Shown: positions 11,545 to 29,470, counted from the first letter of the stretch. The stretch is 64,000 bases of DNA from an uncultured Candidatus Saccharibacteria bacterium (GCA_964368835.1 CAYJCZ010000003.1:64153-128152); one strand, 5' to 3'. Notes: generated by a model not told the origin, from the sequence alone. Numbers and translations are program-made.

Positions 11545-13011
11545 ATGTTGATAGATAAATACTTACAAAAAGATGACTCTGACAACTGGAATCTTATTCC
11601 TCCTGTATCTCTAGAATTACTTCGAAACATAAACTGTCATAAATTTGTTCTTTTTGTGATAGGCGCTATTTCTCGTGACGAATTACTTACAGACCCAAAG
11701 ACACAGAAAGCAAATGATCCAACCATAGACTTTACCTTTGGTAAAAAAGCTTTAGCTATTTCACAAAAAGAATTCACATCTATCTCTAATGTTGAAAATC
11801 TTCTTAATGTTGCAAACAAGGAATGTCAGGGAGGAAAAGCTTATGTAGGTCAGATATTAGATGCTAAAACAGGAGAACTCGCACACTCATTTATAGTTGA
11901 GAAAAACTCAGACAGAAAATTTGTTTGCTTTGAGAAAACAGGCTTTAAGCACTATCCTTTCAACGTTCATGGTTTAGAATCACTTCTCGATTTTGTTAAT
12001 GAGAAAGGTGAAAAGTCATATCAAGATCAAAAATGGAGGTTTGTGGAATTAAACACTTACCCAGAAGAAAAAATCTTTGTAGCTATTCACAGAATATTTC
12101 CACAAGCCACGATTAGTTCGGTGCTGAAATTCTCAAAAGGTTTGGCAAGTAACGTATACAAAGTTGAAATACGAGACCCAAGCAAGATTCTTGCTGTTAA
12201 ATTCTTCCCAAAAAAGATTGAACTGAGAGTTGAAAAAAGCTCACGAATCTCAAGTTACGTAAAAGAAAATGGCCTACCTTCGCCTCAAATCTACGAACTG
12301 ATAAAGGGAGATAGCGAGGGTTCTGTTGTTATGGATTGTTTGCTTGGCGAAGTCGCTTCCGAGGTATGGGAAACAGCATCTGTGGAGAACCGACAGATGA
12401 TCCTGGTTAATTCTGGAAAGATGTTGAAGATGATTCATGATCTAAAAATTCCTTCGTTTTGGATCCATCAAAAACATGAAGTTGCCTCCCCTGAAGAATG
12501 GGTTGAATGGACAAGGGTGCGAATTCAAAAGTATCTAGCGGCTGCGCAAGAGAATTTAGACAAAGAAATTATAGATTTCCTTAGAGCAAAATTTGCTAGA
12601 TTGCAGGATCTCTACAAGGCACACCCCGAGTTCCGCTTTGTTCCGCTTCACTGGGATTATCACTTTTCGAATATCAATATTGATGGGCACTTTGAGATAA
12701 GTGGTGTATTCGATTTTGATAACGCTATGAAAGGCCACGATATGGCAGACCTCGGGCAAACTTTTTACTGGCTCGTGACCCAGCAAAAGATATCCAAGGT
12801 GGAGATGTCTGAAAAATTCTTTACAGGCTACGGAGAATTGTCGTCACTCGATCGCGAGTTCGTATATCTTCACTTTCTCCTTTTCCTTGCTGGTGTAACA
12901 AGATCGACATGGCCGAAAGAAAATCTAAAGTGGCTAAACGAGCTACATGTGGGAGTATTAAAAGAATGTCTTAAAGGAGGATATTGTATACATACACCTG
13001 CTATACTTTAG
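11545..13011 (+). CDS. aminoglycoside/choline-kinase-like phosphotransferase (APH fold) with an N-terminal domain of unknown function
   Basis: 488 aa. The C-terminal half has the APH catalytic loop HWDYHFSNINID (HxDxxxxN) and a DFD metal-binding motif. The ~190 aa N-terminal domain is unassigned. Confidence 0.75.
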   Translation: MLIDKYLQKDDSDNWNLIPPVSLELLRNINCHKFVLFVIGAISRDELLTDPKTQKANDPTIDFTFGKKALAISQKEFTSISNVENLLNVANKECQGGKAYVGQILDAKTGELAHSFIVEKNSDRKFVCFEKTGFKHYPFNVHGLESLLDFVNEKGEKSYQDQKWRFVELNTYPEEKIFVAIHRIFPQATISSVLKFSKGLASNVYKVEIRDPSKILAVKFFPKKIELRVEKSSRISSYVKENGLPSPQIYELIKGDSEGSVVMDCLLGEVASEVWETASVENRQMILVNSGKMLKMIHDLKIPSFWIHQKHEVASPEEWVEWTRVRIQKYLAAAQENLDKEIIDFLRAKFARLQDLYKAHPEFRFVPLHWDYHFSNINIDGHFEISGVFDFDNAMKGHDMADLGQTFYWLVTQQKISKVEMSEKFFTGYGELSSLDREFVYLHFLLFLAGVTRSTWPKENLKWLNELHVGVLKECLKGGYCIHTPAIL

Positions 13012-13013
13012 AA

Positions 13014-13538
13014 ATGCCAGAGTTTAATTTTCACATCCTCCATCAAGACCTTTTTCCTAGCAGATCAACAGAACAATCCTTTACCTTTTCCAATCGTCCC
13101 ACGGTCAAAGTTGTTCTTAGGGATAGTGATAATAAAATATGTTTAACTTCTAAAAAAGGAAGCGGTTTTTATTTTCTTCCTGGGGGTGGTATAGAAAATA
13201 CTGAGGATCCGATAGAAGCATTAAAACGTGAATGTCTCGAGGAGGCTGGTTGCCATATTGAAGTAAAATCTAAAATTGGAACTATCATTGAACACCGAGA
13301 CGAAGCGAAAGAAAAAAGGATTGTATCTTGTTATATAGGAGATGTACTTGGTGAGAAGATATCTCCAACTTTGGCTGTAGGTGATGAAGAAGGTTTTGAT
13401 GTAATTTGGATATCAAGAGAAGAAGCCCTAAGGCTTTTGAAGAAACAGCTATCCTTAATTTCAGAGCAAACCATTAATTTCTATAATAGAAAATTTAATA
13501 CGACGCGTGATTTAAATATTTTGGGTAGTTTAGATTAA
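13014..13538 (+). CDS. NUDIX hydrolase
   Basis: Nudix box GGGIENTEDPIEALKRECLEEAG. Start taken at the ATG at 13014, directly after the upstream stop. The listed ORF start at 12984 would overlap. Confidence 0.75.
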   Translation: MPEFNFHILHQDLFPSRSTEQSFTFSNRPTVKVVLRDSDNKICLTSKKGSGFYFLPGGGIENTEDPIEALKRECLEEAGCHIEVKSKIGTIIEHRDEAKEKRIVSCYIGDVLGEKISPTLAVGDEEGFDVIWISREEALRLLKKQLSLISEQTINFYNRKFNTTRDLNILGSLD

Positions 13539-13665: not shown

Positions 13666-14415
13666 ATGTTAGAAAAATACCTCCAAGACATCGGATTTAC
13701 CGACAAAGAAGCAAAAGTCTATTTAACCCTACTTCAGGTTGATAATTCGTCGGTACTTGATCTTGCAAAGAAAACCAAGATAAAACGTCCCACAGTGTAT
13801 GTGGTACTTGAAACTCTTGCCAAAAAAGGCTTAGTAAGTGAATCAACTATAGGTAAAAAGGTTCATTATCATGCTGAATCACCTGAGCGACTTGCTACAT
13901 ATGTAGAAAGACAAAAAGTCATGCTTGATGACCAGGCCCGACAACTCAAAGATGTCATCCCCCAGATCAAGAGTATTCAGCGAGAAACTGGTGAAAAGCC
14001 AACTGTACAGTACTTCGAAGGAAAAGAAGGTATCAACAGCATGAACGAATCTCTTTATTATGACGAAGAAGAAGGTGGAACCGCCTATCTTGTATACTCG
14101 CGAGATCTGCTCGATAAGGTATTTCCACCCGAGGAGCGTAATAAGTTTAGAAATTCTCGTCTAAAGAAAAATATTAAGAGCAGAGTGCTCTATAACTATT
14201 CTCAAGGGGTCATTCCGTCTGATGAAACTGGTGAAAGGATAAAGATTGATGAAGTTCAGTACCCGTTTAGTTGTGACATAACTATTTATAAAGACAGGGT
14301 TCGTATCTCAATTTTAGGTAAAAAACTCTCGGGCATCTTTATTAAAAGCCAAGAATTCGCTGACACCCTAAAAAACCTATTCTCAGTTGCTTTTGATTCT
14401 CGTAAAAACAAATAG
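13666..14415 (+). CDS. TrmB-family transcriptional regulator
   Basis: 249 aa. The N-terminal wHTH (FTDKEAKVYLTLLQ...LDLAKKTKIKRPTVYVVLETLAKKGLV) matches the TrmB family. Confidence 0.8.
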   Translation: MLEKYLQDIGFTDKEAKVYLTLLQVDNSSVLDLAKKTKIKRPTVYVVLETLAKKGLVSESTIGKKVHYHAESPERLATYVERQKVMLDDQARQLKDVIPQIKSIQRETGEKPTVQYFEGKEGINSMNESLYYDEEEGGTAYLVYSRDLLDKVFPPEERNKFRNSRLKKNIKSRVLYNYSQGVIPSDETGERIKIDEVQYPFSCDITIYKDRVRISILGKKLSGIFIKSQEFADTLKNLFSVAFDSRKNK

Positions 14416-15069: not shown

Positions 15070-15098
15070 TTGACAGAAATAGGGTTTAAGTATATACT
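15070..15098 (+). promoter_or_regulatory. strong sigma70-type promoter driving the hammerhead-ribozyme operon
   Basis: TTGACA (15070-15075), exactly 17 nt, TATACT (15093-15098). Confidence 0.65.
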
Positions 15099-15127
15099 AC
15101 TCAACAGATTATTCTTTGAGTCAAATT

Positions 15128-15222
15128 TGGTAACTTCTTAATGCCCCTGATACACGACCCGTCTCCCAGAAAATAACGAGACTGCTTGGCGAGTATCACC
15201 CGGAGGCATTAAGAAGTTACCA
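15128..15222 (+). ncRNA. structured 5' leader closed by a perfect 18 bp helix, function unknown
   Basis: tggtaacttcttaatgcc ... ggcattaagaagttacca pair perfectly over 18 bp. Inner helices ctgatac/gtatcac and cgtctc/gagacg. Starts about 25 nt after the predicted transcription start. Confidence 0.4.
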
Positions 15223-15474
15223 AAACCCCAACCCCAAATATAGAAACCATGGACTACAAAGTCTATCCTGACGGCACCGTTGAGGTGATCCGTCGCTATT
15301 AATCCTCCAGGAGGGATTCGTTCTACGTCGTAATGTGGTTTGAGCAAAATCCGGCTCTGTCAAAATAGGAAAAAAGTTTTGTCCCCATCTTTCTTAGAAA
15401 AGACGGCGAGCCATAAGGGAGCAGAACCTTTCGGGAGACAACCCGCGTAAAAACAACCAAGTCATCGACTTGGT

Positions 15475-15526
15475 TTCCGTCCCGAGATGTTTTCTCGGCT
15501 GATGAGTCCAAAAGGACGAAACGGAA
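15475..15526 (+). ncRNA. hammerhead ribozyme 1 (type III)
   Basis: Stem III ttccgt/acggaa, cleavage triplet GUC, stem I ccgaga(uguuu)ucucgg, core CUGAUGAG, stem II guccaaaaggac, then CGAAAC. Confidence 0.85.
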
Positions 15527-15606
15527 TGCTCTTTGAGAAATGTTGGTCTATACCTCCTCGCACTTAATTTTGAGTTCGAAGAGGTGTAGGCCATTCGTGT
15601 GGCCAT
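15527..15606 (+). repeat. module A' (diverged copy of the 84 nt post-hammerhead structured module)
   Basis: Aligns with 15931-16014. Stem positions differ with compensatory changes, and a C-A mismatch is kept at the same position in both hairpins. Confidence 0.6.
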
Positions 15607-15875
15607 CTAACCCTCCGCGGTTTTCTCCTCGACATACAGAGGGGTCCGTATGGAGTACCGCTAGATTCAGCTTTCATACCCGAAGGGTAATGACCGACTG
15701 AATAGTGTGGAAAAGAAACCCATGTCGGGTTTCATGAGGGAGACGTCCTAAAATTAAAGAATACATAAAAAATCTTTAATTACACGAATTATTTAGTTTC
15801 AAGCAAGGTTTAACTTAAAACCTGCCCGAAGGTTGTAGCAATTGAGTCTTCATGGACTCTTGCTCCCTTCGGATC

Positions 15876-15932
15876 CTGTCTCAGCCCAAGGCTGACTGAC
15901 GAGTCTTCCGAGCGATCGGCAAGACGAAACAG
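15876..15932 (+). ncRNA. hammerhead ribozyme 2 (type III)
   Basis: GUC site, stem I ucagcc(caa)ggcuga, core CUGACGAG, extended stem II with a bulged C capped by a GCGA GNRA tetraloop, CGAAAC, stem III cugu/acag. Confidence 0.85.
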
Positions 15933-16014
15933 AATGTTCTTTAAAAATCTGGCCTGTACCATCTTGAATTTAAGTTCTTGAGTTCAAAATGGTGTAGGTC
16001 AGTCGTGTGGCCAT
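15931..16014 (+). repeat. module A, copy 1 (84 nt conserved structured element after the hammerhead)
   Basis: 83 of 84 nt identical to 16828-16911. It folds into a long imperfect hairpin with closing helix ccugUacc/ggUGuagg. Confidence 0.8.
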
Positions 16015-16237
16015 TTCACCCAGAATTTCCTGCTGGACGATAGAGCAGGAAAGAATGACCCCAAGAGGGCAAAGTGATTCTGTCCAAGTTTCACTATAAG
16101 GGGCCAGTAACCCTAAGCGAAAAGCACACGAATATTTAGTTGGTTTAGAAGAAACCAACCAGGAGAGAGGTAGAACTCGACGGAATCCAAGAGGATTCTA
16201 TTAGTCGGCTACCAACCTCTCCTGCAAGTGTCTCCGT

Positions 16238-16285
16238 CTCAGACGGACTGATGAGCTTTCCGATTTGTTCGGCAAAGCGAAACAC
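16238..16285 (+). ncRNA. hammerhead ribozyme 3 (type III)
   Basis: gugu-C site, stem I uccguc(uca)gacgga, CUGAUGAG, stem II gcuuuccgauuuguucggcaaagc with a bulged C, CGAAAC, stem III gugu/acac. Confidence 0.85.
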
Positions 16286-16302
16286 AGATGTTCTTTGAAT
16301 AA

Positions 16303-16359
16303 GTTGGTTTCGGAAGCGAGTGCATAAATGTGCTATGTGCGCTCACTTCCGAAACCAAC
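16303..16359 (+). repeat. module B hairpin, copy 1 (~21 bp stem) between a hammerhead and the cargo ORF
   Basis: gttggtttcggaagcgagtgc ... gcgctcacttccgaaaccaac. Homologous hairpins at 17219 and 18434 show compensatory base-pair changes. Confidence 0.75.
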
Positions 16360-16414
16360 ACAATCGATAATCTCCCATTCGGGATGACACGGTTCACTGT
16401 GGTGAGGAATTCTT

Positions 16415-16732
16415 ATGGCTAACGCAACCAAATCCTCGAAGGTCTTAGTGACCTACACGCCGCATCGTCTCGGCCACTCGCTCGCCCAGAAGTTATGGGA
16501 GCGGGGCTTGTCGAAGGATCGGCAAGTTGGCCTCGACAGCGAGGCACATGTCATCTTGTATGACGAGGTAAAGGAAGCCGCTGAAGGCTTCGCGGAGGAT
16601 CCTCGGGTTCTCCGGATTGTGGTAGCGACGGAAATGCCGCCCCACCTTCCCAAGGGGATATTCTGGATCAAACCAGATGTCCAGGCTTTCACTAGCCTTA
16701 TCCGGACGTTAAATCCGGGAAGTGAAATGTAA
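16415..16732 (+). CDS. cargo ORF 1: GC-rich hypothetical protein (105 aa)
   Basis: GAGGAA SD 7 nt upstream of the ATG. GC is well above the window average. No recognisable domain. Confidence 0.55.
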   Translation: MANATKSSKVLVTYTPHRLGHSLAQKLWERGLSKDRQVGLDSEAHVILYDEVKEAAEGFAEDPRVLRIVVATEMPPHLPKGIFWIKPDVQAFTSLIRTLNPGSEM

Positions 16733-16771
16733 TGAGATGGGTACATATAAACCCCATCCACCCTGCAATAA

Positions 16772-16829
16772 AACGCAGGTTCTGTCCGAAGATGTATATC
16801 TTCGCTGATGAGCTCTAAAGAGCGAAACA
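16772..16829 (+). ncRNA. hammerhead ribozyme 4 (type III)
   Basis: uucugu-C site, stem I cgaagau(guau)aucuucg, CUGAUGAG, stem II gcucuaaagagc, CGAAAC, stem III uucugu/acagaa. Confidence 0.85.
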
Positions 16830-16911
16830 GAATGTTCTTTAAAAATCTGGCCTGTACCATCTTGAATTTAAGTTCTTGAGTTCAAAATGGTGTAGGCCAG
16901 TCGTGTGGCCA
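16828..16911 (+). repeat. module A, copy 2
   Basis: Near-identical to 15931-16014, with a single t/c difference. Confidence 0.8.
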
Positions 16912-17143
16912 TTCATCGGAGCTTGTGTTGGAACAAGTGCGTGATAAGTGCCGAAGGTAGATATAGACTGCAGTCTATATTTCTACTAAAAGGGTTGTCC
17001 TGATCAGGCAACCTAAGACTCTGGTGTCTCCCACCTAAGTACACACGAATAGTTTGTAGCGGTTTTTAGAAGAGAAACCGCTCCGGAGAAGGTCTGATGT
17101 TTGTTGAATCATGTGATTCCAAATGTCCACCTGTCTCCGGCTA

Positions 17144-17198
17144 GTGTCTCCGTTTTAAACGGACTGACGAGCTTTCCATTTTTGGCAAAGCGAAACAC
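17144..17198 (+). ncRNA. hammerhead ribozyme 5 (type III)
   Basis: gugu-C site, stem I uccguu(uua)aacgga, core CUGACGAG, stem II gcuuuccauuuuuggcaaagc with a bulged C, CGAAAC. Homologous to HHR3. Confidence 0.85.
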
Positions 17199-17218
17199 AG
17201 ATGTTCTTTGAATAAAAA

Positions 17219-17271
17219 GTTGGTTGTGGAAGATAGATCAGAAAATTTCTGGCTTTTCTTCCACAACCAAC
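17219..17271 (+). repeat. module B hairpin, copy 2
   Basis: gttggttgtggaag ... cttccacaaccaac, perfect 14 bp. Differs from copy 1 at covarying positions. Confidence 0.75.
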
Positions 17272-17328
17272 GCAACCGATAAGCTCCCGACAGGGATGAC
17301 ACGGCTCGCAATGGCGCGGAATCACTTC

Positions 17329-18009
17329 ATGAATACGAACAAACTAAATGTCTTGGTTTTTGATGACAGCAAGATTCATCGCGCCGCCGCGCAAGCCCAG
17401 CTCAAGGAGCACAACCTCACGGTCGTAGGCACCTACGATGAGACCCAGGAACTCATCACGCCGAAACTAGATTACAAACGGGCTGAGGGAATCGTCCGAA
17501 AGGAATTCCCGGATTTCAAGCCCTACGATAATGGCGTGAGCAAGGAGCAGAGAGACGCCTATCAGGCCGCGTGGAAGAGGGCCAACCAAGAGGCCACCAC
17601 GTATCCCACATTTGATGTGGTTCTCACCGATCTCCTCGTCCCTGCTTCAAAGCAGGCGCAAGGACCCGATGGATACCAATTCATCGGCCAGGAGATGCCG
17701 GTCGGGGTCTTTATCGCATTGCTTGCGGCAGCCAAGGGGAAAGTGAAACACGTAGCCGTCTTCACCGACAGCGACCATCACTCTCATCCGGCCTCTGCTT
17801 GCTTCGATAGATTCAACGAGGGCGAGGGCAATCCGACGCCGTTTATGGTGAATGGCTGTAAGTTCCTGCTTTCAAACAGCAGGGGCTGGGTCAACCATTT
17901 CGACCCCAACGATCTTGCCAAGGAATTGAAGTATGAAGAATACAAGGGCAGATCGGATACGGTAAGGGCGAAAAACTGGAAGGCCCTTCTTGACTACCTG
18001 CTCACGTAG
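17329..18009 (+). CDS. cargo ORF 2: GC-rich hypothetical protein with a CheY/receiver-like N-terminal segment
   Basis: Start moved to the ATG at 17329, after the conserved leader; the listed 17224 start lies inside the module B hairpin. The motifs NVLVFDDS and DVVLTDLLVP resemble a receiver fold but with atypical spacing. About 55% GC. Confidence 0.55.
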   Translation: MNTNKLNVLVFDDSKIHRAAAQAQLKEHNLTVVGTYDETQELITPKLDYKRAEGIVRKEFPDFKPYDNGVSKEQRDAYQAAWKRANQEATTYPTFDVVLTDLLVPASKQAQGPDGYQFIGQEMPVGVFIALLAAAKGKVKHVAVFTDSDHHSHPASACFDRFNEGEGNPTPFMVNGCKFLLSNSRGWVNHFDPNDLAKELKYEEYKGRSDTVRAKNWKALLDYLLT

Positions 18010-18120
18010 TCGTCGGCGCGGCAACTCCCGGGAGATCCAAGTGGATCGCGATGAACCGGCGGAGATGGAGAAAACCATCTTGGCAACAGAATCAAAACAC
18101 TGGGTCAGAAAAGATCCTGT

Positions 18121-18169
18121 CTGTCCATCGATGTGTATCGATGCTGATGAGCTCTAAAGAGCGAAACAG
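18121..18169 (+). ncRNA. hammerhead ribozyme 6 (type III)
   Basis: cugu-C site, stem I caucgau(gugu)aucgaug, CUGAUGAG, stem II gcucuaaagagc, CGAAAC. Stem III extends to aagauc/gaucuu. Confidence 0.85.
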
Positions 18170-18198
18170 AACGATCTTTAAAACCAAAAAAGGAGAAT

Positions 18199-18306
18199 TA
18201 TGAAAATCAAAATGCCGAACCGCATGGATACTTATCGCGCCGTGCGCAAAGTGCTTCCACCGCCGTCAAAAGCTTTTGCCCCAAGCAAAGGCAGAGGCGG
18301 TTATGA
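18199..18306 (+). CDS. cargo ORF 3: very small basic protein (35 aa) directly after HHR6
   Basis: Strong SD AAAGGAGA 7 nt upstream. Reads MKIKMPNRMDTYRAVRKVLPPPSKAFAPSKGRGGL. A +1 frame continues to 18349, so a longer frameshifted form is possible. Confidence 0.3.
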   Translation, partial: YENQNAEPHGYLSRRAQSASTAVKSFCPKQRQRRL

Positions 18307-18368
18307 CCGCAAGCGCGAGAAACGCGATTCCAGAATGGGGTTCGAATGATTTACATCAATGCTCTTTT

Positions 18369-18417
18369 CTGTTTCGAGATGTGTATCTCGACTGATGAGT
18401 CCTAAAGGACGAAACAG
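18369..18417 (+). ncRNA. hammerhead ribozyme 7 (type III)
   Basis: cugu-U site, stem I ucgagau(gugu)aucucga, CUGAUGAG, stem II guccuaaaggac, CGAAAC. Confidence 0.85.
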
Positions 18418-18433
18418 ATGTTCTTTGAATATA

Positions 18434-18484
18434 TTGGTTTCGGAATAAAGTCCACTCGATGAGCTGACTTTATTCCGAAACCAA
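18434..18484 (+). repeat. module B hairpin, copy 3
   Basis: ttggtttcggaataaagtc ... gactttattccgaaaccaa, perfect 19 bp. Third covarying variant. Confidence 0.75.
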
Positions 18485-18563
18485 AGCCACTGATAAGTCC
18501 CTCTAGTTCCTATTTCATAGGGATAAGAGATGACACAGCTGTGCCAAGGGGAGGAATACCACC

Positions 18564-18869
18564 ATGAAGAAATTCATCCTGTCAGTGTTCGCCCTGTTGG
18601 CCTTCTCCGCGGCTCTGTTCGCCACCGATGACAAGAAGCCCTCCACGCCCTTAGGGTTCAAGGAGGCCGAGATCATCGGCACGGTCAAGGAGATCGTGGT
18701 CGTCAACGCCGATCGTAACCTCCAGTATTGGACGGTGAAGGTCGACGGCAAGGACGCGCCCTACCACCTCTTCACCGACGAAAAGGGCAAAGTCGGCGAG
18801 CGCATCGTCATTTACGTGATGGTGCGGGTAGGCGGCCAAGTGAGCTGGATCAAAGTGAGGCCCCTTTGA
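18564..18869 (+). CDS. cargo ORF 4: GC-rich small secreted protein (101 aa, signal peptide)
   Basis: GGGAGG SD. N-terminal MKKFILSVFALLAFSAALFA signal peptide. High GC. Confidence 0.55.
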   Translation: MKKFILSVFALLAFSAALFATDDKKPSTPLGFKEAEIIGTVKEIVVVNADRNLQYWTVKVDGKDAPYHLFTDEKGKVGERIVIYVMVRVGGQVSWIKVRPL

Positions 18870-19347
18870 TCAGTGAGTTGCGGAACTCAACAAAACCCGC
18901 TCTTGCATCCCGATCGATGCAAGTATATGTAATGTAGCTATTTCATCTGAATCAGATGGAATATCGGTCCCAAGCCCGCGTAAATACAGAGGGTCATTAT
19001 CCAAGCCCAGAAAGAGAGCTCCGCAAGGAGATGGGAAATGCTTGAGCGAATCCTGATCAGGTTTGCCATCGTGTTAGATCCAGCGGAATCTGGACGCGTT
19101 GTCACAACGACGCACGACTGAATCTGCTATTTCCAGCAGATAAGTTGTCGGCATTAAGATTGCCGAAAGTTCATGGCTGAACATTCATTGCTCTTTACAT
19201 CAAAACATCAAAACTTAGGCGCCGGGAGAATCGAGAAAATCTCCCTTGCCTGTCACGACTCGAATCACTCTTGTGTAAATCTAAGACAGTAGGCATCCTG
19301 AAAAGGAAGAAGCCCTACCGAGATTTATAAAGGAGGTTTAGAAGATA

Positions 19348-19866: not shown

Positions 19867-19915
19867 AAAACTTCGAGAGACAACTCGTAAAAACCCGAGA
19901 CTAAAGGCTCGGTAT

Positions 19916-19963
19916 CTGTAGCGAAGTGTAACTTCGCCTGATGAGTCCAAAAGGACGAAACAG
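19916..19963 (+). ncRNA. hammerhead ribozyme 8 (type III)
   Basis: cugu-A (GUA) site, stem I gcgaagu(guaa)cuucgc, CUGAUGAG, stem II guccaaaaggac, CGAAAC. Confidence 0.85.
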
Positions 19964-20012
19964 AATGTTCTTTAAATAATTTTTCTTCCCGCACTGTAAA
20001 CCAAATAGAAAA

Positions 20013-20195
20013 ATGAAAACAACTGCAATCATAGTCGGACTCGTGCTAGGCACCTGGGGATTAGTCGGCGGATACTTATTGATCCGTGATCGTCATAACA
20101 GCGTTGCCCCACGAACCATTGGTATCGTGAGTCTCGTTGGCATGATGAGTTCCGCGATCGTCTTGACGCTCGCAATCGCCACCATGGCAGAGTAA
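20013..20195 (+). CDS. cargo ORF 6: small membrane protein (60 aa, two TM segments)
   Basis: Hydrophobic ORF 50 nt after HHR8. Confidence 0.4.
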   Translation: MKTTAIIVGLVLGTWGLVGGYLLIRDRHNSVAPRTIGIVSLVGMMSSAIVLTLAIATMAE

Positions 20196-20228
20196 GACTA
20201 ATCGGTTCTAGGTTATCCTCAAAACCTA

Positions 20229-20277
20229 CTGTTTCGGAATGTGTATTCCGACTGATGAGCTCAAAAGAGCGAAACAG
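20229..20277 (+). ncRNA. hammerhead ribozyme 9 (type III)
   Basis: cugu-U site, stem I ucggaau(gugu)auuccga, CUGAUGAG, stem II gcucaaaagagc, CGAAAC. Followed by a 13 bp hairpin (20300-20347) and then the ORF. Confidence 0.85.
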
Positions 20278-20401
20278 AATGATCTTTAAAAAACTTCAAA
20301 CTTCGTCATAGCAGAAAGCGGCTACTCCTGGCCTCTCCCTGCTATGACGAAACCATTACGGCCAAGTCCTCTAGCGAAAACTAAATCAAGGATATAAACT
20401 C

Positions 20402-21199: not shown

Positions 21200-21212
21200 A
21201 ATAACCTCGAAA

Positions 21213-21239
21213 CCGTGTCTCACAAACACGGTTTTTTTA
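21213..21239 (+). terminator. rho-independent terminator closing the hammerhead operon
   Basis: aaaccgtgtctcacaaacacggttttttt. Confidence 0.8.
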
Positions 21240-21258
21240 TTGGTATACTTTAGATATG
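21228..21258 (+). promoter_or_regulatory. second copy of the extended -10 leaderless promoter (tttttattgGTATACTttagatATG)
   Basis: Identical at 23 of 24 nt to 10950-10979. Placed immediately before the NUDIX gene ATG. Confidence 0.55.
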
Positions 21259-21702
21259 GATAAGTTACTAAATACTCGAATTCGAGCAGTTGCAATTGTC
21301 ATCAAAGATGACTCTGTTTTGCTTATGCATAGAATTAATAAAGATCGAGGTGAATATTGGACATTCATTGGCGGTGGAGTCGAGGAAGGTGAATCTGTCG
21401 AAGATGCTGTAATACGAGAGTTGTATGAAGAGGCTTCGTTAAAGGCTTCAATAAATAAATTATTTACCATTATTAAAAACGATGGGTCCGCAAGATATCA
21501 CCATACTGCGGAGCATCACTTTTATTTGTGTGACTATATTTCAGGAACACCTAAATTTGGAAATGGGCCAGAGCACATGACGGCTGACAATATCTACGAT
21601 CCTCAGTGGGTAAATATTGATATGTTTAAAAAGTTAAATCTTTACACAGAGGAAGTAAAAAATAAGTTAATTGATTATCTTGAAAATAAAAAAGATAGAT
21701 AA
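21256..21702 (+). CDS. NUDIX hydrolase
   Basis: Nudix box GGGVEEGESVEDAVIRELYEEAS. Confidence 0.8.
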   Translation: MDKLLNTRIRAVAIVIKDDSVLLMHRINKDRGEYWTFIGGGVEEGESVEDAVIRELYEEASLKASINKLFTIIKNDGSARYHHTAEHHFYLCDYISGTPKFGNGPEHMTADNIYDPQWVNIDMFKKLNLYTEEVKNKLIDYLENKKDR

Positions 21703-21705
21703 TGT

Positions 21706-22689
21706 ATGCAAGAGCTTTTAACAAAAATTAATGAGTTATACGGGAAAATAGTTACTAATCCTCAAAAAGTCACAGGAGGATTTTTGAGCGAGAACTATTT
21801 TCTAGAAGAAGGTGATAAGAGATACTTTCTCAAAAAATATAGATTCAATAACGCCAAGAGGATTGAAGAGGTTCACGCATCTAAAAAATACTTTTCTGAC
21901 GGAGGTATTCCCGTAATTCTACCCATTCCTCTTTTAAACGGTAAGACCTATTTTTCTTATAATGAAGGTTATTATGCACTCTTTCCATTTATTGATGGTA
22001 GACAAGTAGATAGGGGTAATATGAACCATGCTGAAATTATTTCCCTCGGTGAGATGTTGGGAAGAATTCATTTACTCGGTAAGGTGGCAAAAGTGGCAAA
22101 TGAAGATCGTTTTAAAATTGAAAATAAAGAAAAGACGTTTAAAAAGATAGAGGATATTCTAATCGAAATACACAATAAAGACACTTTGAGTAATTTTGAT
22201 AAAACAGCTGTTGAAAACATTGAACTCAAGAAACAACTCCTTTTATCTAACACATTAACTTTTGAGAATCTTAATTTACCTTGTGATCATTTAATACATG
22301 GTGACTATCTTGATCATAATGTGTTTTTTGATAATCAGCATAAAGTTTTTGCTGTCTTTGACTTTGAAAAGACGAGCTACTCACCTAGAACATATGAACT
22401 GTTCAGGTCTATGATCTACGGAATGATTAGTGATGATTTTTCAGAAAAAAGCTTGGGTGACGCAAAAATATATCTTGATGCGTATGTCCGTATTTATACT
22501 ATATCAAAAGATGAGATTAAAAGAGGTTTACAGTTATTCCTACTCAAATCTATTCATGGATTTTGGGTTGAAAGTGAACATTATCTAAAAAACAATAACC
22601 GAGTAGATGAATTCTTGTTTAACGATTTAAAGAAGATTAAATACTTATCAAAGAATCTAGAAAAGTTTACTAAATTTCTTACAGGGTAA
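21706..22689 (+). CDS. APH/choline-kinase-like phosphotransferase
   Basis: Catalytic loop LIHGDYLDHNVFFD (HGDxxxxN) and a DFE metal-binding motif. 327 aa. Confidence 0.8.
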   Translation: MQELLTKINELYGKIVTNPQKVTGGFLSENYFLEEGDKRYFLKKYRFNNAKRIEEVHASKKYFSDGGIPVILPIPLLNGKTYFSYNEGYYALFPFIDGRQVDRGNMNHAEIISLGEMLGRIHLLGKVAKVANEDRFKIENKEKTFKKIEDILIEIHNKDTLSNFDKTAVENIELKKQLLLSNTLTFENLNLPCDHLIHGDYLDHNVFFDNQHKVFAVFDFEKTSYSPRTYELFRSMIYGMISDDFSEKSLGDAKIYLDAYVRIYTISKDEIKRGLQLFLLKSIHGFWVESEHYLKNNNRVDEFLFNDLKKIKYLSKNLEKFTKFLTG

Positions 22690-22716: not shown

Positions 22717-24012
22717 CTAGCTGATATCATCTTTAAGAAAAATCTGTTTTTCTTTTAGAGTTATTTTACTTTTCAGACACCCCAACAGCTCCCTCTTTTC
22801 TGAATCATTTCCTTCTCTCAACACAAATTTTGTGTAATTTCGTATATCAATATCACCAACTACGATTTTTTCTTTGATGCCGAGCACCATTCGCTGAAAA
22901 CTTTTGAATCGTTCAACCTCAGTCTTAATCTGATCTTTTATACCTATCTCATCTAGGTCTATTGCATCCATTAATTTCTCAAACTGTTTGATTAGATCTT
23001 CCTCATTGATATATCCGCACTTGCATTTCTTATCCCTGACTTTTGTACATATGTAATAAACATGTCTATTCATAGTACCGTCTCTCAATTTCTTAAATTT
23101 CTCGTCAGCGGTTATCCCTGAACCACACAATCCACAAGTCATTAGTTTGGTAAAGGCGAATTCTTTATTTTCCGTCCTCACAAAAAGACTTTTTACCTGC
23201 TGTTGTGCCAGATCAAACAATTCTTTATTTATTAGAGGAATATGCTTGCCTGTATACCAATTACCGCTCTTCACTGGGTACTCAAAGACTCCGTAGTAAA
23301 AAGGGTTCTGTAGTATTAGGTATACATTTCCTAAAGTCAGACCTTTCTTACCTGTAATGCTCTTAAAATTCAAATCGAATTTCAACCAGTGATATATTTT
23401 GTTACCGCTCCATTTTTCATAAGCAACTTTTTCAAATATTTTTCTAATAACTGGACCTCGTTCGGGATCAACAATCGCCTGACACTTCCTATCCATATGT
23501 CTTTCGTTGAGATACCCCACAGGAGGTTGTCCTGGCCGTAGTCCCATTTCACACCTTGTCCTCAAACCACGCTTCACATTGATACTCTTGTTGTCATTTT
23601 CAAGTTTGGCTTGCGAACAAAGAATCATGAGGAGGAACTTCTCGTTTGGTGAGTTCCTAAATTGTTGTCCGTAGGTTTTGATCTCAATAAGGTGTTTTTG
23701 ATCCATTAAATCAACTACAGATCCTAGATCTCCAGCATTACGACTCAACCTATCGGGTGCCCATGTGAGGATTCCATTAAATTTATCTCCTCTTATATCC
23801 TCTAATATTTCTTTAAATACTGGTCGTTGCCCAGAATCTTTGGCCGAATGAGATTCTCTCCGAATATCAATAACTTCAAGTTGATCACGCTCGGCAATTT
23901 TCAGCATTTCCTTAACCTGTGATTCTATTGATAAGGCTTGTTTCTCGTCTTGCTCAGTACTCTTTCTTGCGTATAGACAATATCGCACCTTGATCGTTGG
24001 AATCACAGCCAT
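22717..24012 (-). CDS. large serine recombinase (resolvase domain, recombinase domain and zinc ribbon)
   Basis: Catalytic region YARKSTEQDEKQALSIESQ; C-terminal CxxC...CxC zinc ribbon. Start set at Met33 (24012). In-frame alternatives at 24045 and 24108. Confidence 0.85.
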   Translation of the reverse strand: MAVIPTIKVRYCLYARKSTEQDEKQALSIESQVKEMLKIAERDQLEVIDIRRESHSAKDSGQRPVFKEILEDIRGDKFNGILTWAPDRLSRNAGDLGSVVDLMDQKHLIEIKTYGQQFRNSPNEKFLLMILCSQAKLENDNKSINVKRGLRTRCEMGLRPGQPPVGYLNERHMDRKCQAIVDPERGPVIRKIFEKVAYEKWSGNKIYHWLKFDLNFKSITGKKGLTLGNVYLILQNPFYYGVFEYPVKSGNWYTGKHIPLINKELFDLAQQQVKSLFVRTENKEFAFTKLMTCGLCGSGITADEKFKKLRDGTMNRHVYYICTKVRDKKCKCGYINEEDLIKQFEKLMDAIDLDEIGIKDQIKTEVERFKSFQRMVLGIKEKIVVGDIDIRNYTKFVLREGNDSEKRELLGCLKSKITLKEKQIFLKDDIS

Positions 24013-24228
24013 TTTGCCTATAAGGGCTGTCGTTTGTGTTTCCATACGACCATTAATGACAGAACCGTTGGTTTTGCTAAGCGAGTGATGTTGGCAACGT
24101 GTAGACAACTATCCTTAGCAAAATAGCTAATCAGCGATACTATGTTGGACTGGTAACGGTTTTGGCGTTATCATAATCCATGACAATTCAATAGGTAAAG
24201 TAGCCTAACCCATCGAGCAATCGGTGGC

Positions 24229-25107
24229 ATGGTGAAAGTTAGTCGATCAAGCATAAAAAACCCGTCATGGGGTTGCTTGATCGCCGTATGGGGAAACCTG
24301 TACGAGGGACTTCGGTTCCTACCCGTGGCGGGCTTTTTGTTCGCCGCACATTACAAGCCGATCAAGCAAAATATGCACATTGTTTTTATCTTACTTTCCT
24401 TTTTGGCATTTCTAGGATTTTTTGCAGGACTCATTAAACCTTCGTGGTTTAAGATGAAATCCCGCAGACAATCATCAGGAGTGTTTGCCGGAACTTTCGT
24501 CCTTCTTATGATCCTTACGATCATCGCTTCTCCGGCAGAAGAAGTGCCTCCATCTGTTGTCGTTCAGTCAACTGCGCCAGCAGTAGCTCAACCTGTCGTA
24601 GCGACGGAGCCAGTTCAGCCGCCAAAGCCAAAAACCCGAGAAGAGCTCATTACGCAAAAGATAGAAGCTTCACTTGGGGCTACGACCAACACAAGCAAAC
24701 CGCGCGTAGTTTCCGTCGAACTCACAGCCTACAAATCATCTGAATTGAGTACTTATGGATATGCCTCGACCAATACCGTCCAAGGCGCATTCATCAAGAC
24801 AAATGCGAGCGAGAATCTCACATCGAATCTCCAGAAGATGACCTTGCATAAAGAAGCGGCAAAAATATTTCAAGACACTTTCTCATCTTTCTCACAGATT
24901 GGTGATGTGATTATTTGGGAAAGACTGCCCGTGAGCGACCAATATGGAAATCAAAAGGATGATACGGCGATTGTATATGCTATGAGCCGATCATTGTATG
25001 ACAAAATTAACTGGGCAAGCTTCTCATACACAACCTTGCCAGATCTCCTGAAGTCAGAGGGTCATACCGATGACCGAAATTCGTATTACGAAGCGATCCG
25101 ATTCTAG
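24229..25107 (+). CDS. membrane-anchored hypothetical protein
   Basis: 292 aa with TM helices near the N-terminus (a possible internal start at 24373), then a Pro/Thr/Val-rich linker and a C-terminal domain. Confidence 0.5.
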   Translation: MVKVSRSSIKNPSWGCLIAVWGNLYEGLRFLPVAGFLFAAHYKPIKQNMHIVFILLSFLAFLGFFAGLIKPSWFKMKSRRQSSGVFAGTFVLLMILTIIASPAEEVPPSVVVQSTAPAVAQPVVATEPVQPPKPKTREELITQKIEASLGATTNTSKPRVVSVELTAYKSSELSTYGYASTNTVQGAFIKTNASENLTSNLQKMTLHKEAAKIFQDTFSSFSQIGDVIIWERLPVSDQYGNQKDDTAIVYAMSRSLYDKINWASFSYTTLPDLLKSEGHTDDRNSYYEAIRF

Positions 25108-26574
25108 TCAGACAAAATAAATCATTGGCGATACTCGTGATTGTTGCAGGGCTTCAAGCGATCCCATATACATCATCACGAAAGCGTCAGCTAGATCATC
25201 GTGTGATTCTCGGCCTTGGCCTGTAAGTTGAGCTATAAGTTGTTTAGCTCCTTTCTTTGGGAATAAGATAATGCCGTCAATGATGCTTGGTGCAGTAAGT
25301 GTTACCCTCGACTTCTTATCCGTCGTGTTCTTTATAGGCACCACGTCCAAGCCTCCTCTCGACAGGAATTCAGCATAGATCTCCTGAAATCCGTTCGTTT
25401 CAATAGCTACTTTCGGATTCGCGTAGCATCCGCTGAAGTGAAGCTGTTTTGCTTTCTTGTTTATAGCGTTGATGGTCTCATGGAAGTGCATACGCTCATT
25501 GACTATGTTCGGAACCACAAGAATTCTGTTTTCTCCTTTGTAATCACAGATTACTCCTGTCACAAGAGCGGTATAGTCGGCACTATCCTTTTGAGAGATA
25601 GCCAAATCAACACCGATAAACGCTCCGTATGTCGAAAATTCTCGCATGTCGTCGAGACTTTCGCAGTCATGGTACTTAATCCACTCGGGATGTACCGCTC
25701 TACTGCTATCAGAGATTATCTTCAAGAGATATTCTTGTTGCCAAGCTATTTCATTAGCCACGCTCTGCCGCAGAGTTTCGATTTTTTCTTTCGTATCGAA
25801 CTTTCCGGGCCATAAGCATTCGCCGCTATCTGTCACTAGGGGAAACCACTTGAATATTCCCTTAAGCTCGTTGTCTTCTATGCGCCTCCGAAGCCTCATG
25901 ATAAGCGAATCTTCATGTAGGAGGTTTCCAACAATGATTATCCGAGTTCCCAAATCGCCGAGAGGTACTATCTCGCGAGTGAACCAGTCGAATATCTTGT
26001 TCCTACCCTCCATGGTCTTTGTTGAGCTGAGATCCTCCACATCATCGAGGATGATGAGATCGGGTCTATTCTCGTGATGTCGGATTCCTCGGATGCTCTG
26101 GTCTATCGAGGCAATCGTGATTCGGGAGTTCGTATTACTGAATATGAGCGAGTGCGCACCCCATTCTCCCGATTCTTCCTGAAAGGGGCCTAGATCGCCC
26201 TTTAAGAGTCTATTTGTCTCCAATTCATATCGGAGGTTAGCCATGTGCTGTTTAGCCTGCGCTTGGGTCTGACAGATAATGAGAACGAATCTCTTTTTCT
26301 GCACACCGAGGATAGACCAGATCGCATAGGAGAATGTAATCAAGGTAGATTTTCCAGAGCCACGAAACGCAACAATACACGCAAGCTTATTCGACTGATC
26401 TTCGGTGATTCGGAAAATGTCTTTGTGGAATTCAGCGACGGAATATTTGACGTAATGCGGGAAATAGACGAGAAAGAACATCATATGGCTTTGCCTTGTG
26501 ATTTCGGATCGAATGATTCGGTCATGCAGGATTTTCTGCATTAATTCTTCGGAGATTGTGTTATTTTCCATCAT
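25108..26574 (-). CDS. phage terminase large subunit
   Basis: 488 aa. Walker A AFRGSGKST in the ATPase domain, followed by an RNase H-like nuclease domain layout. Confidence 0.8.
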   Translation of the reverse strand: MMENNTISEELMQKILHDRIIRSEITRQSHMMFFLVYFPHYVKYSVAEFHKDIFRITEDQSNKLACIVAFRGSGKSTLITFSYAIWSILGVQKKRFVLIICQTQAQAKQHMANLRYELETNRLLKGDLGPFQEESGEWGAHSLIFSNTNSRITIASIDQSIRGIRHHENRPDLIILDDVEDLSSTKTMEGRNKIFDWFTREIVPLGDLGTRIIIVGNLLHEDSLIMRLRRRIEDNELKGIFKWFPLVTDSGECLWPGKFDTKEKIETLRQSVANEIAWQQEYLLKIISDSSRAVHPEWIKYHDCESLDDMREFSTYGAFIGVDLAISQKDSADYTALVTGVICDYKGENRILVVPNIVNERMHFHETINAINKKAKQLHFSGCYANPKVAIETNGFQEIYAEFLSRGGLDVVPIKNTTDKKSRVTLTAPSIIDGIILFPKKGAKQLIAQLTGQGRESHDDLADAFVMMYMGSLEALQQSRVSPMIYFV

Positions 26575-26998
26575 CGTTTTTCTTAAGGTATATCTCCTGG
26601 ATCTTTTGTTCCGTTTCTTCCTTAGGTATATCCAAGGAAGCGAGGCGTAAAGCTTCGCGGATTACAACCTCTTGTTCTGGAGTTACTTTGTCCTGTTTGA
26701 TCTCGGTAGTCACATGAAGACTGTCCTTATACTTCGGATTCCTATGTCGCAACCAAAAGCTGATTGCCGACCAATTCTTTTCTTGGATGAGAGAAAGGAG
26801 CTGGCTTTCGCTCATATCGTTTACGAATGCTTCACCATCAGTCATTGCCTCATCCATAGCTTTCTTAAATTCCTCATCTTCTTTTCGCCACCTATACACA
26901 CTATTGCGAGAAATGGCAGACTTTTCACACGCTACTTGAACGATAGGAATACGCCGAAGCTCGGCAAGGAACTGATCCCTCTTTTTATCTTTCTTCAT
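26561..26998 (-). CDS. HTH protein, possibly a terminase small subunit or phage regulator
   Basis: 145 aa. HTH-like QVACEKSAISRNSVYRWRK. Position immediately upstream of the terminase large subunit. Confidence 0.45.
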   Translation of the reverse strand: MKKDKKRDQFLAELRRIPIVQVACEKSAISRNSVYRWRKEDEEFKKAMDEAMTDGEAFVNDMSESQLLSLIQEKNWSAISFWLRHRNPKYKDSLHVTTEIKQDKVTPEQEVVIREALRLASLDIPKEETEQKIQEIYLKKNDDGK

Positions 26999-28774: not shown

Positions 28775-29470
28775 CTAAAAACTTATATGCCTTCCTTCGG
28801 TGACAGAGCTTTCGTTTATTGGAACAAATTCAGTCATGTCCCTACTATCACCAGGTATAGAGCAAATGACTTTGCCGGAAATATGAAAATTCTCACCCAA
28901 AATGATCGGTTTGTATTTCGGATCCTTTGATTCGGGTCGGAGAATATTAATTTCACCGCGCCGTTCAAATCTTTTTACTGTAACCATGTCATCAACCACC
29001 GCCGCAACACGGTCTCCATTTTTGATATCACTAGTGAGCTGAATAAGGACGTAGTCCCCATTATGAATATCGGCGTCATTCATGCTATTTCCAATAGCGC
29101 GAACAGCCACGTGCGAAAAAGCCGAACTCAAAAGACTTTTATCAACCTCTATGAACTCGTCGTGTTGCTCGTTCGCAAAGATACTCAAATCATCGCACCC
29201 AACAGAACCAGTCACGGGGATACTTACCGTCGTTCTTAAAGAAAGAGAGCCGAGATTATCCGAAAGCTCGATGTTTCGCTTGGCGTGCTTGCGGCGTACG
29301 ATGTATCCCTTTTGCTCAAGGGCCTTCAGATGTTGAACAATGGTATTGAGCGACGCGACACCCTGAAATTGCTTGATTTGCTCAAGAGTGGGGGCCTCGG
29401 TATGGTCCTCAATGTATTTACGAATATAGGAATATATGGCCTGTTGTATGGCTGTAAGTGGTGATTTCAT
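28775..29470 (-). CDS. LexA-like or phage CI-like repressor (wHTH plus S24 peptidase)
   Basis: N-terminal LexA-type wHTH. C-terminal S24 domain with Ser in GNSM and Lys in VKRF. Confidence 0.8.
   Translation of the reverse strand: MKSPLTAIQQAIYSYIRKYIEDHTEAPTLEQIKQFQGVASLNTIVQHLKALEQKGYIVRRKHAKRNIELSDNLGSLSLRTTVSIPVTGSVGCDDLSIFANEQHDEFIEVDKSLLSSAFSHVAVRAIGNSMNDADIHNGDYVLIQLTSDIKNGDRVAAVVDDMVTVKRFERRGEINILRPESKDPKYKPIILGENFHISGKVICSIPGDSRDMTEFVPINESSVTEGRHISF

Follow-up and report, generated by a model that had tools for sequence, protein, structure and literature searches.

Hammerhead ribozymes followed by boxA-like elements in a gene array of a Saccharibacteria chromosome fragment and in related bacteria

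We describe an array of nine hammerhead ribozymes (HHR1 to HHR9) in a 64,000-nucleotide (nt) stretch of DNA from an uncultured Candidatus Saccharibacteria bacterium (GCA_964368835.1, CAYJCZ010000003.1:64153-128152; hereafter the window), together with three related leaders, which we call module 2, between positions 16286 and 18563. The hammerheads are followed by a short motif that, judging by its sequence, is probably boxA, the NusB/NusE antitermination element whose gamma-proteobacterial consensus is GYTCTTTAANA (PMC5725501). Across the bacteria of the Candidate Phyla Radiation (CPR, or Patescibacteria), the coupling of hammerhead and boxA is, on the loci compared here, near-obligate, and this is a wider and more interesting result than module 2 itself.

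Results

A boxA-like motif follows hammerheads and promoters

A variant of (A)UG(U/A/C)UCUUU(G/A)A lies downstream of all nine hammerheads of the array and also downstream of the promoter of the operon that contains them (Table 1). The form after HHR2 and HHR4, GTTCTTTAAAA, is an exact match to GYTCTTTAANA, a consensus that is gamma-proteobacterial and may not be that of the host. HHR1 carries UGCUCUUUGAG, and the module 2 copies carry GTTCTTTGAAT, which agrees with the same consensus at nine of the ten specified positions and has G at position 8 and T at position 11. The boxA of the E. coli rrn operons is UGCUCUUUAACAA, and the consensus of 52 CPR sites is A-U-G-U-U-C-U-U-U-(G/A)-A-A. With G at position 8 the motif reads GTTCTTTGAA, a conserved block of the 16S-23S spacer in mycoplasma and phytoplasma (mollicutes), used there as a polymerase chain reaction primer or probe, and we take this block to be the spacer boxA. 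The sequence-only reading of this DNA had treated AGAUGUUCUUUGAAUA as the opening mark of module 2; it turns out to be general after CPR hammerheads and CPR promoters, and to match boxA.

A genome scan, with one genome per species and a hammerhead plus ATGTTCTTT as the query, returned 28 loci. Twenty-four are of Patescibacteria type (Paceibacteria, Saccharibacteria, Nomura- and Taylor-bacteria, Minisyncoccia, and three labelled only 'bacterium'), and the other four are chance matches in unrelated phyla. These loci hold 25 hammerheads whose selection did not depend on the motif; G[TAC]TCTTT lies within 50 nt of 20 of them and the rest have near variants, where we estimate that chance would place the motif near about 1-2% of such hammerheads. 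The spacing between hammerhead and motif is mostly 3-10 nt; in three cases the motif lies 29-40 nt downstream, two of these after an inserted hairpin.

The motif also occurs with no ribozyme, 5-8 nt after promoters of the sigma-70 type (TTGACA-N17-TATAAT) in four other loci (L028, L032, L048 and L060) and at window position 43245 (- strand). Boxes of this type hold a promoter-proximal, sense-strand position at 15111 and 43196 (-) of the window and in L028, L032, L048, L060, L066, L068 and L069. These copies bear on an alternative in which GUUCUUU is a 3' extension of the ribozyme and not boxA, and would make a tertiary contact or pair with loop II or stem II (AAAGAGC or AAAGGAC), tuning cleavage or preventing religation. 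A check by hand shows that, if G-U pairs are counted, seven positions of GUUCUUU can pair with either of the common stem II variants, and the block lies mostly within 3-10 nt of stem III. However, the motif is found without a hammerhead after promoters and in the intergenic repeats of L068, it shows no covariation with stem II (the same motif accompanies the GAGU/ACUC, GUCU/AGAC and long stem II variants), and an inserted hairpin can part it from the ribozyme (L037, L038). We regard a ribozyme extension as very improbable.

Other identities for the motif were tried and rejected. It is not a mini open reading frame (ORF; ATG TTC TTT GAA TAA), since HHR6 has ACG in place of ATG; it is not an extension of stem III, which is limited to 4-7 base pairs (bp) and ends 5' of the motif; and it is not an anti-Shine-Dalgarno sequence, since short leaders place it too near the Shine-Dalgarno to pair.

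A long hairpin follows the boxA-like motif at eight of the ten sites of the operon. Among CPR hammerhead-boxA sites, a helix of at least 10 bp is present at 28%, compared to 9% of random controls (Mann-Whitney p = 0.003, folding energy). At sites without a long hairpin, the motif runs directly into the Shine-Dalgarno.

Several promoter-linked copies have features of their own. On the - strand of the window, 43245-42670 comprises a promoter (TTGACA-N17-TATGAT), the boxA-like CAGTTCTTTGA and about 500 nt without an ORF, and ends in a GC-rich hairpin and U-tract; it has no match in Rfam and is a candidate long non-coding RNA. Orthologues in L066 and L069 of the 226-amino-acid (aa) gene of the array have a leader composed of promoter, hairpin, GCUCUUUGAUAAG and long hairpin, and the conserved form of this leader (4860-5000 in each locus) reads promoter, hairpin, GCUCUUUGAUAAGACGGGAG, long hairpin and Shine-Dalgarno. 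These CheY-like orthologues sit after tRNA genes (in L069, between ParB and MiaA); the window copy sits in the ribozyme operon. Locus L068 (2650-7100) is a CPR array of seven small ORFs, one of which encodes a homologue of the 226-aa protein, with no hammerhead and no Rfam hit. Its intergenic repeat of about 130 nt consists of three hairpins, the first of them terminator-like, then GTTCTTTGA and a Shine-Dalgarno. The L068 array has a divergent gene for a TrmB-type regulator, and a gene of this type is likewise a neighbour in L058 and in the window.

The hammerheads are predicted to cut at their 5' side

The nine CTGAYGAG...CGAAAC cores lie on the + strand within 5 kb (15.4-20.3 kb), for which the chance expectation is 0.03. 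Rfam reports seven of the nine as Hammerhead_3 (RF00008) at 36-48 bits, compared to a gathering score of 48.5 (HHR1, 48.3; HHR4, 46.2; HHR7, 44.2). HHR3 and HHR5, which have a long stem II, are not reported, and close relatives in other CPR loci exceed the gathering threshold with 49.9-54.5 bits. In the Rfam alignments of HHR4, HHR6 and HHR7, stem III is outermost and a GUC or GUU cleavage triplet occupies model positions 6-8. The hammerheads are therefore assigned to type III, with a predicted cut at their own 5' side, 5' of stem I, so that the ribozyme would stay on the downstream RNA; for HHR3 we infer this topology by analogy with HHR4, HHR6 and HHR7. As read from the sequence, stem III of HHR3 and of HHR5 has only 4 bp (GUGU/ACAC), which should favour release of the upstream product.

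The side of the cut matters for the long hairpin of module 2, which we call P1. The predicted downstream products start at 16233, 17149 and 18374, with stems I and II at their 5' end, and P1 begins 70, 71 and 60 nt from the predicted 5'-OH in copies 1, 2 and 3. The sequence-only reading had put the hairpin about 15 nt from the 5'-OH, a distance that a type III cut does not allow, and had proposed that this closeness makes it a 5'-end stability or translational control element. The hairpin is real, is under selection and lies in the 5' untranslated region of real genes, but stems I and II already occupy the 5' end, P1 begins too far downstream of it, and boxA with a long hairpin is also found after promoters, where there is neither ribozyme nor 5'-OH. 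A role through closeness to the ribozyme-made end seems improbable to us.

One long-stem-II hammerhead differs between metagenomes, reading TTGATGAG in one and CTGATGAG in the other (L077 at about 1846, L076 at about 942). A C3-to-U change of this kind in the catalytic core would be expected to inactivate the ribozyme.

The array is probably transcribed as one RNA

The operon promoter matches the consensus at 11 of 12 positions and is the sole strong + strand promoter in 14.4-21.3 kb. A terminator scan found no + strand terminator-like site between it and the strongest such site, the probable end of the operon. Because there is a single strong promoter and no earlier terminator on this strand, the region is most simply read as one polycistronic transcript of about 6.1 kb, which nine type III hammerheads would cut into about ten pieces. 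About 2.5 kb of this transcript is untranslated, including the first 1.3 kb. The leader of the primary transcript has the layout of module 2 without a ribozyme.

Some units between hammerheads are non-coding RNAs of about 300-360 nt, which we call module 1 (15523-15878, 15931-16232 and 16829-17148; also L076 607-926). Each combines boxA with a 20-24 bp hairpin and a boxC-like UCGUGUGG, for which CACACGA, about 150 nt further downstream, is a potential pairing partner. A GGUUU-AGAAGA-AAACC hairpin is also present in each, and a closing helix precedes the next ribozyme. This layout is like that of a ribosomal RNA (rRNA) leader (boxA, boxC, leader-trailer helix), and module 1 has no Rfam match. 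Also inside the operon, at 18926-18998 (+), is a type-P1 twister-like element (54.8 bits, compared to a gathering score of 67.2). The sequence after it is non-coding for about 600 nt, and no boxA-like motif follows the element.

Module 2 leaders contain two hairpins under selection

The three module 2 leaders are paralogous and share one order of parts: hammerhead, boxA-like motif, P1 (20-24 bp), a second, small hairpin made up of two helices (P2), Shine-Dalgarno and ORF. Aligned with their ribozymes, they have a mean column identity of 73%, and ACAGATGTTCTTTGAATA is identical in all three (16284-16301, 17197-17214 and 18414-18431). As the sequence-only reading had described, the motif and a long hairpin with compensatory stem changes are present after HHR3, HHR5 and HHR7; for each of the three P1 hairpins, none of 200 shuffles folds as well. 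All 13 alignable P1 pairs are paired in the window copies, three of them being changed on both sides, and pairing drops to 26-59% when the alignments are slid by 1-3 columns as a control. With three sequences from a relative added, all 13 pairs remain intact and six show double changes, which none of 500 shuffles equals. A GGAAG/CUUCC segment is invariant in P1 of all six leaders, and the neighbouring pairs covary.

P2 follows P1. Its outer 3-bp helix reads YCG/CGR in the majority of copies; the CUG/CAG of copy 3 is a compensatory change by RNAalifold and by pair counting. The downstream block that had been proposed for this region, CGATAA(T/G)CTCCC-N4-GGGATGACACGG with a small hairpin, is present as described in copies 1 and 2, but copy 3 has diverged, with TGATAAGTCCC, then a larger hairpin, then GATGACACAG. 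Structural selection acts on both P1 and P2. Among Rfam 15 matches at E <= 1 in 16286-18563 there are only the hammerheads and two chance hairpin hits, with no cis-regulatory RNA or riboswitch. The P2 internal loop was considered as a kink-turn and rejected, since the positions of its G-A pairs do not fit.

The UUCUUU of the motif is complementary to ribosome-binding sites of the GGAGGA type and is paired in the minimum-energy fold of copy 1. A stable local hairpin would therefore keep boxA, ribozyme and ribosome-binding site apart. A role of the leaders in translation or stability is plausible.

The P1 stems (23, 15+8 and 19+3 bp) reach the length of RNase III substrates (at least 20 bp, near-perfect), which raises another possibility, that RNase III or a different double-strand RNase processes the RNA at P1. 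A cut there would detach the ribozyme and boxA, and the freed 3' strand (CUUCC...CC) would fold onto the Shine-Dalgarno (GGAA) and the (U/C)GG upstream of it, giving a processing-dependent translational switch. The invariance of GGAAG/CUUCC beside covarying neighbours is consistent with this, as is the result of removing the 5' strand of P1 in silico, after which the 5' end is closed onto the Shine-Dalgarno by the minimum-energy fold of five of five leaders. One compensatory change, in leader R1 of the relative, couples the base of P1 with the region upstream of the Shine-Dalgarno, and there are precedents in lambda N and suhB for a boxA complex that represses a nearby ribosome-binding site (PMC5725501). 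However, when compared with shuffles, the complementarity falls short of significance in three of the five leaders (p = 0.24-0.31) and is marginal in two, and the alternative helix is almost invariant and so gives no covariation test. The analogy for such a switch is phage lambda, in which RNase III cuts a hairpin between nutL and the N gene. We consider it unlikely here. P1 processing would be compatible with the proposal, discussed below, that boxA re-arms the polymerase, and does not exclude it.

The conservation of P2 suggests a further alternative, that a dedicated trans-acting regulator, protein or small molecule, binds P1 and P2 and so co-regulates unrelated cargo genes, boxA being incidental. 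In P2, covarying helices flank unpaired nucleotides that are conserved, GAUAA in the 5' strand and GACA in the 3' strand, one leader type serves unrelated ORFs in two genomes, and a TrmB-type gene adjoins the array and the related arrays in L058 and L068. Nevertheless, no Rfam family matches, the loops are variable, the P2 of leader R2 of the relative is different, with GAUAA but no GACA, and TrmB proteins bind DNA. While P2 may bind a factor, a regulator that makes boxA incidental is decidedly improbable.

The module is shared with one relative and is mosaic

A homologue of the 101-aa protein encoded after copy 3 is found on two JGI contigs, L076 and L077, of a related metagenomic genome, together with a homologous ribozyme array that also holds a non-coding module 1 copy. 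Two module 2 leaders occur there, R1 and R2, as well as a shorter relative of the module. The 111-aa ORF after R1 resembles neither the 105-aa ORF nor any other window cargo with which it was compared. The nearest counterpart to P1 of copy 1 is P1 of R2 (76-78% identity), and the part of copies 1 and 2 that contains P2 and the Shine-Dalgarno is closest to R1 (62-68% identity). From these mosaic identities, parts of the leader appear to move independently of one another and of the ORFs. The idea of standardised, portable leaders is thus strengthened, homologous leaders standing before unrelated ORFs both here and in the relative.

The expected conservation in related genomes is borne out in that the relative carries the module, but its range is narrow. 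The covariance-model search that had been suggested, run with six sequences over 342 kb of CPR loci, finds the full module in two genomes only, plus a Logan contig identical to the window. The full module is, on this search, lineage-restricted and a narrow family of paralogues. The leader of HHR9 is a loose fourth relative of module 2; it has CGAAACCA and AAGUCC(C)UCUAG in common with copy 3 and is without GAUGACAC.

Other searches were negative. In viral contigs, the post-ribozyme motif and the leader pattern each had chance matches only, none with a hammerhead and most in coding sequence; BLAST of HHR7 plus boxA against phage genomes gave no match; and a 24-base leader pattern gave one chance match, in a coding region, in metagenome contigs, a pattern that is too strict, the relative having GAAGACAC and CCGCCG.

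In L076, the homologue of the 49-aa ORF that follows HHR6 has no hammerhead upstream. Upstream of this homologue is a repeated block, CGAAUGAAUCGU(U/G)GGUC(U/A)GUAGAAA followed by a boxA-like (A)G(C/U)UCUUU (at about 1570-1625 and 2005-2060), which may be another processing element or a promoter.

Cargo genes and setting of the operon

The start codons that had been proposed for the three cargo genes (16415, 17329 and 18564) open ORFs of 105, 226 and 101 aa, all with homologues. The 105-aa protein has six diverged homologues (57-74% identity) and an identical NCBI entry. The 226-aa protein belongs to a CheY-like family that is widespread in CPR bacteria, with 222 homologues. The 101-aa protein has a hydrophobic N-terminus that looks, by eye, like a signal peptide; it has one homologue, P0129, at 55% identity, which has leader R2 upstream.

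By gene content and homologues, the window is a chromosome fragment of CPR/Patescibacteria type. The gene order DprA-TopA-ParB-MiaA is common to the window and a Nomurabacteria genome (L069), and homologues of local proteins belong to Nomura-, Taylor-, Berkel- and Moranii-bacteria. Near the ribozyme array, a large serine recombinase and prophage-like genes span 22.7-32 kb. The array does not consist of integron attC cassettes, since there is no IntI-type recombinase nearby (the recombinase is of the large serine type and on the opposite strand), P1 is without RYYYAAC...GTTRRRY core sites, and the elements between ORFs are ribozymes.

Directly beside the recombinase, at 24202-24320 (+), is a LOOT RNA (Rfam RF03000; 73.7 bits, compared to a gathering score of 46.4). 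A gene pair encoding an APH-type kinase and a NUDIX hydrolase is found on either flank of the operon (11545-13538 and 21256-22689), in reversed order.

Table 1. Positions of features in the window and, where a contig is named, in the related metagenomic genome.
Feature	Position	Strand	Remarks
Operon promoter	15070-15098	+	TTGACA-N17-TATACT
Primary-transcript leader	15111-15224	+	boxA-like ATTCTTTGA (15111-15119), then hairpin with 20-bp stem (15126-15224), z = -8.0
HHR1 with boxA-like motif	15474-15536	+	GCUCUUUGA (15528-15536); opens non-coding module 1 unit
HHR2 with candidate boxA	15873-15944	+	GUUCUUUAAAA (15936-15946)
HHR3	16228-16285	+	long stem II; stem III GUGU/ACAC; predicted cleavage after C16232
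HHR4 with candidate boxA	16779-16842	+	GUUCUUUAAAA (16834-16844)
HHR5	17144-17198	+	long stem II; predicted cleavage after C17148
HHR6 with boxA-like motif	18118-18181	+	GAUCUUUAA; Shine-Dalgarno and 49-aa ORF (18200-18349) directly after, without hairpin
HHR7	18366-18420	+	predicted cleavage after U18373
HHR8 with boxA-like motif	19913-19975	+	GUUCUUUAA; short leader to 60-aa ORF (20013-20195)
HHR9 with boxA-like motif, hairpin and leader	20226-20401	+	GAUCUUUAA (20281-20289); 13-bp stem; z = -5.6
Module 2 leader, copy 1	16288-16414	+	after HHR3
Module 2 leader, copy 2	17201-17328	+	after HHR5
Module 2 leader, copy 3	18418-18563	+	after HHR7
boxA-like motif, copy 1	16288-16301	+	AUGUUCUUUGAAUA
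boxA-like motif, copy 2	17201-17214	+	
boxA-like motif, copy 3	18418-18431	+	
P1, copy 1	16303-16359	+	14 bp, 1x1 mismatch, 9 bp; z = -5.9
P1, copy 2	17219-17271	+	15 bp and apical extension (15+8); z = -4.4
P1, copy 3	18434-18484	+	19 bp and 3 bp; z = -5.8
P2, copy 1	16364-16392	+	outer UCG/CGG; loop AUAA / (U)GACA; inner UCCC/GGGA; tetraloop
P2, copy 2	17276-17304	+	CCG/CGG; AUAAG / UGACA; UCCC/GGGA
P2, copy 3	18490-18538	+	outer CUG/CAG; inner hairpin enlarged
Shine-Dalgarno and 105-aa ORF	16404-16732	+	GAGGAA (16404-16409); ORF 16415-16732
Shine-Dalgarno region and 226-aa ORF	17318-18009	+	GGAA; ORF 17329-18009
Shine-Dalgarno and 101-aa ORF	18550-18869	+	GGAGGAA; ORF 18564-18869
Strongest + strand terminator-like site 3' of promoter	21209-21235	+	probable operon end
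Weaker terminator-like site	21298-21312	+	
R1	L077 389-530		precedes 111-aa ORF
R2	L077 968-1101 (= L076 63-196)		precedes homologue of 101-aa protein
Shorter relative of module 2	L076 975-1058		
TrmB-type regulator gene	13666-14415		adjoins array
Large serine recombinase	22717-24108	-	
Terminase-like gene	25108-26574		prophage-like neighbour
DNA methylase	26985-28316		prophage-like neighbour
LexA-like gene	28775-29470		prophage-like neighbour
Housekeeping genes			UvrD-type helicase (UvrD/REP and PD-(D/E)XK nuclease domains), seryl-tRNA synthetase, DprA, topoisomerase I, ParB, MiaA, ClpB, IF-2

Discussion

Hammerhead-punctuated operons and boxA outside rRNA operons are both known already; here the two are combined. 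Our literature search found no report of hammerheads in CPR bacteria, nor of hammerhead-boxA pairing, and the coupling thus appears to be undescribed. Perreault et al. (2011) reported clustered hammerheads that flank single genes in prophage-like bacterial regions, near integrases, and proposed that a long RNA is cut into gene-length pieces (PMC3088659). The present array is similar, with its neighbouring recombinase and prophage-like genes and its proposed processing of a long RNA. The passages of that report that were searched mention no conserved post-ribozyme element, whereas here a boxA-like block follows nearly every hammerhead, several units are non-coding, and the host belongs to the CPR/Patescibacteria.

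There is also a likeness to rRNA operons. It extends to the sequence, GYUCUUU(A/G)A, to the position just after a promoter or RNA-processing point, to the repetition of the element within one operon, to the long helices nearby and to the boxC-like GUGUGG in module 1 units. Unlike an rRNA operon, the window operon encodes small proteins and non-coding RNAs, its RNA is processed by self-cleaving ribozymes instead of at an RNase III helix, and it has ten copies of the element in 6 kb. The suhB 5' untranslated region (Baniulyte 2017) and CRISPR leaders (Stringer 2020) likewise have boxA in the leader of an mRNA or a non-coding RNA, with protection from Rho, but each has a single promoter-proximal boxA per transcript and none is ribozyme-linked. 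The lambda nut sites, and nutL-N in particular, resemble module 2 in having a single-stranded boxA, a short spacer and a hairpin, with a boxA complex that influences translation of the downstream gene. Module 2 is nevertheless not a nut site of the lambda type, since P1 has 20-24 bp and loops that vary in size and sequence, not a 15-nt boxB with a defined loop, and we know of no N-like protein for these leaders. The RiboJ-type synthetic insulators attributed to Lou et al. in 2012 reportedly consist of a hammerhead and a downstream hairpin placed before the ribosome-binding site. Module 2 has the same order of parts, with a retained hammerhead, a hairpin keeping the ribosome-binding site free of context effects and then the gene, but it is natural, a boxA separates its ribozyme from its hairpin, the hairpin is much longer, and P2 is an extra part.

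NusB and NusE bind single-stranded boxA and nucleate a Rho-resistant RNA polymerase complex that is tethered to boxA through a loop of nascent RNA (PMC7665894, PMC10250234). boxA shields long untranslated CRISPR arrays from Rho (PMC7665894), rRNA operons have a second boxA set upstream of the 23S gene (PMC10250234), and boxA near a Shine-Dalgarno can repress translation, as in suhB and lambda N (PMC5725501). From this background we propose a mechanism for the array. Each hammerhead would cut at its own 5' edge and remain on the downstream RNA as a folded cap with a 5'-OH. The boxA would recruit NusB/NusE (S10), assembling a termination-resistant RNA polymerase tethered through its nascent RNA. 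Each ribozyme cut would sever that tether, and the boxA right after the ribozyme would then re-arm the polymerase for the next unit. A boxA in every unit makes sense under this mechanism because every cut would disconnect the polymerase from the preceding boxA, and a need for antitermination is plausible because about 2.5 kb of the transcript is untranslated and exposed to Rho; the second boxA upstream of the 23S gene offers a parallel for the repetition. The least certain parts concern the leader structures: P1 would insulate ribozyme and boxA from the purine-rich ribosome-binding region and may double as a double-strand RNase site, and P2 is a candidate regulator-binding site.

On balance, we regard the overall reading, in which boxA in each unit of a ribozyme-cut transcript would reload antitermination and P1 and P2 are lineage-specific leader structures, as evenly poised. 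That Nus proteins bind the motif, that antitermination is reloaded and that P1 or P2 acts in translation are the inferred steps. A more far-reaching version, in which CPR bacteria systematically pair hammerheads with boxA to re-arm the polymerase against Rho at each cut and P1 hides an anti-Shine-Dalgarno strand that a second processing event frees, is tentative and on the doubtful side.

Several points weigh against the proposed mechanism. The module 2 form of the motif departs from the gamma-proteobacterial boxA consensus at positions 8 and 11, and neither the window nor any of the loci compared contains rRNA genes by which the boxA of this lineage could be calibrated. NusB, NusE and Rho are not seen in the window, and their presence in the genome is assumed. 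The pyrimidine-rich UUCUUU could instead bind ribosomal protein S1 or some other protein, or serve in Rho loading. The mechanism also presupposes that a cut releases the antitermination complex. The full module is found in two genomes only, so that P1 and P2 could be parts of young paralogues, and the case for masking of the Shine-Dalgarno by the 3' strand of P1 is weak, with duplex energies at p = 0.01-0.3 against shuffles and a helix that hardly varies.

The role of many bacterial hammerheads has been unclear since the 2011 catalogue, and the link to boxA would tie ribozyme processing to antitermination. The module 2 leader is narrow and lineage-specific, and its worth lies in being a tractable example with clear covariation. 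If the proposed mechanism is true, the array would be a natural counterpart to synthetic insulators made of a ribozyme and a hairpin, bacterial hammerheads would gain a defined role in operons, cutting the RNA while the polymerase keeps going, and regulation by boxA would extend to the protein-coding and non-coding operons of a huge and poorly studied bacterial radiation.

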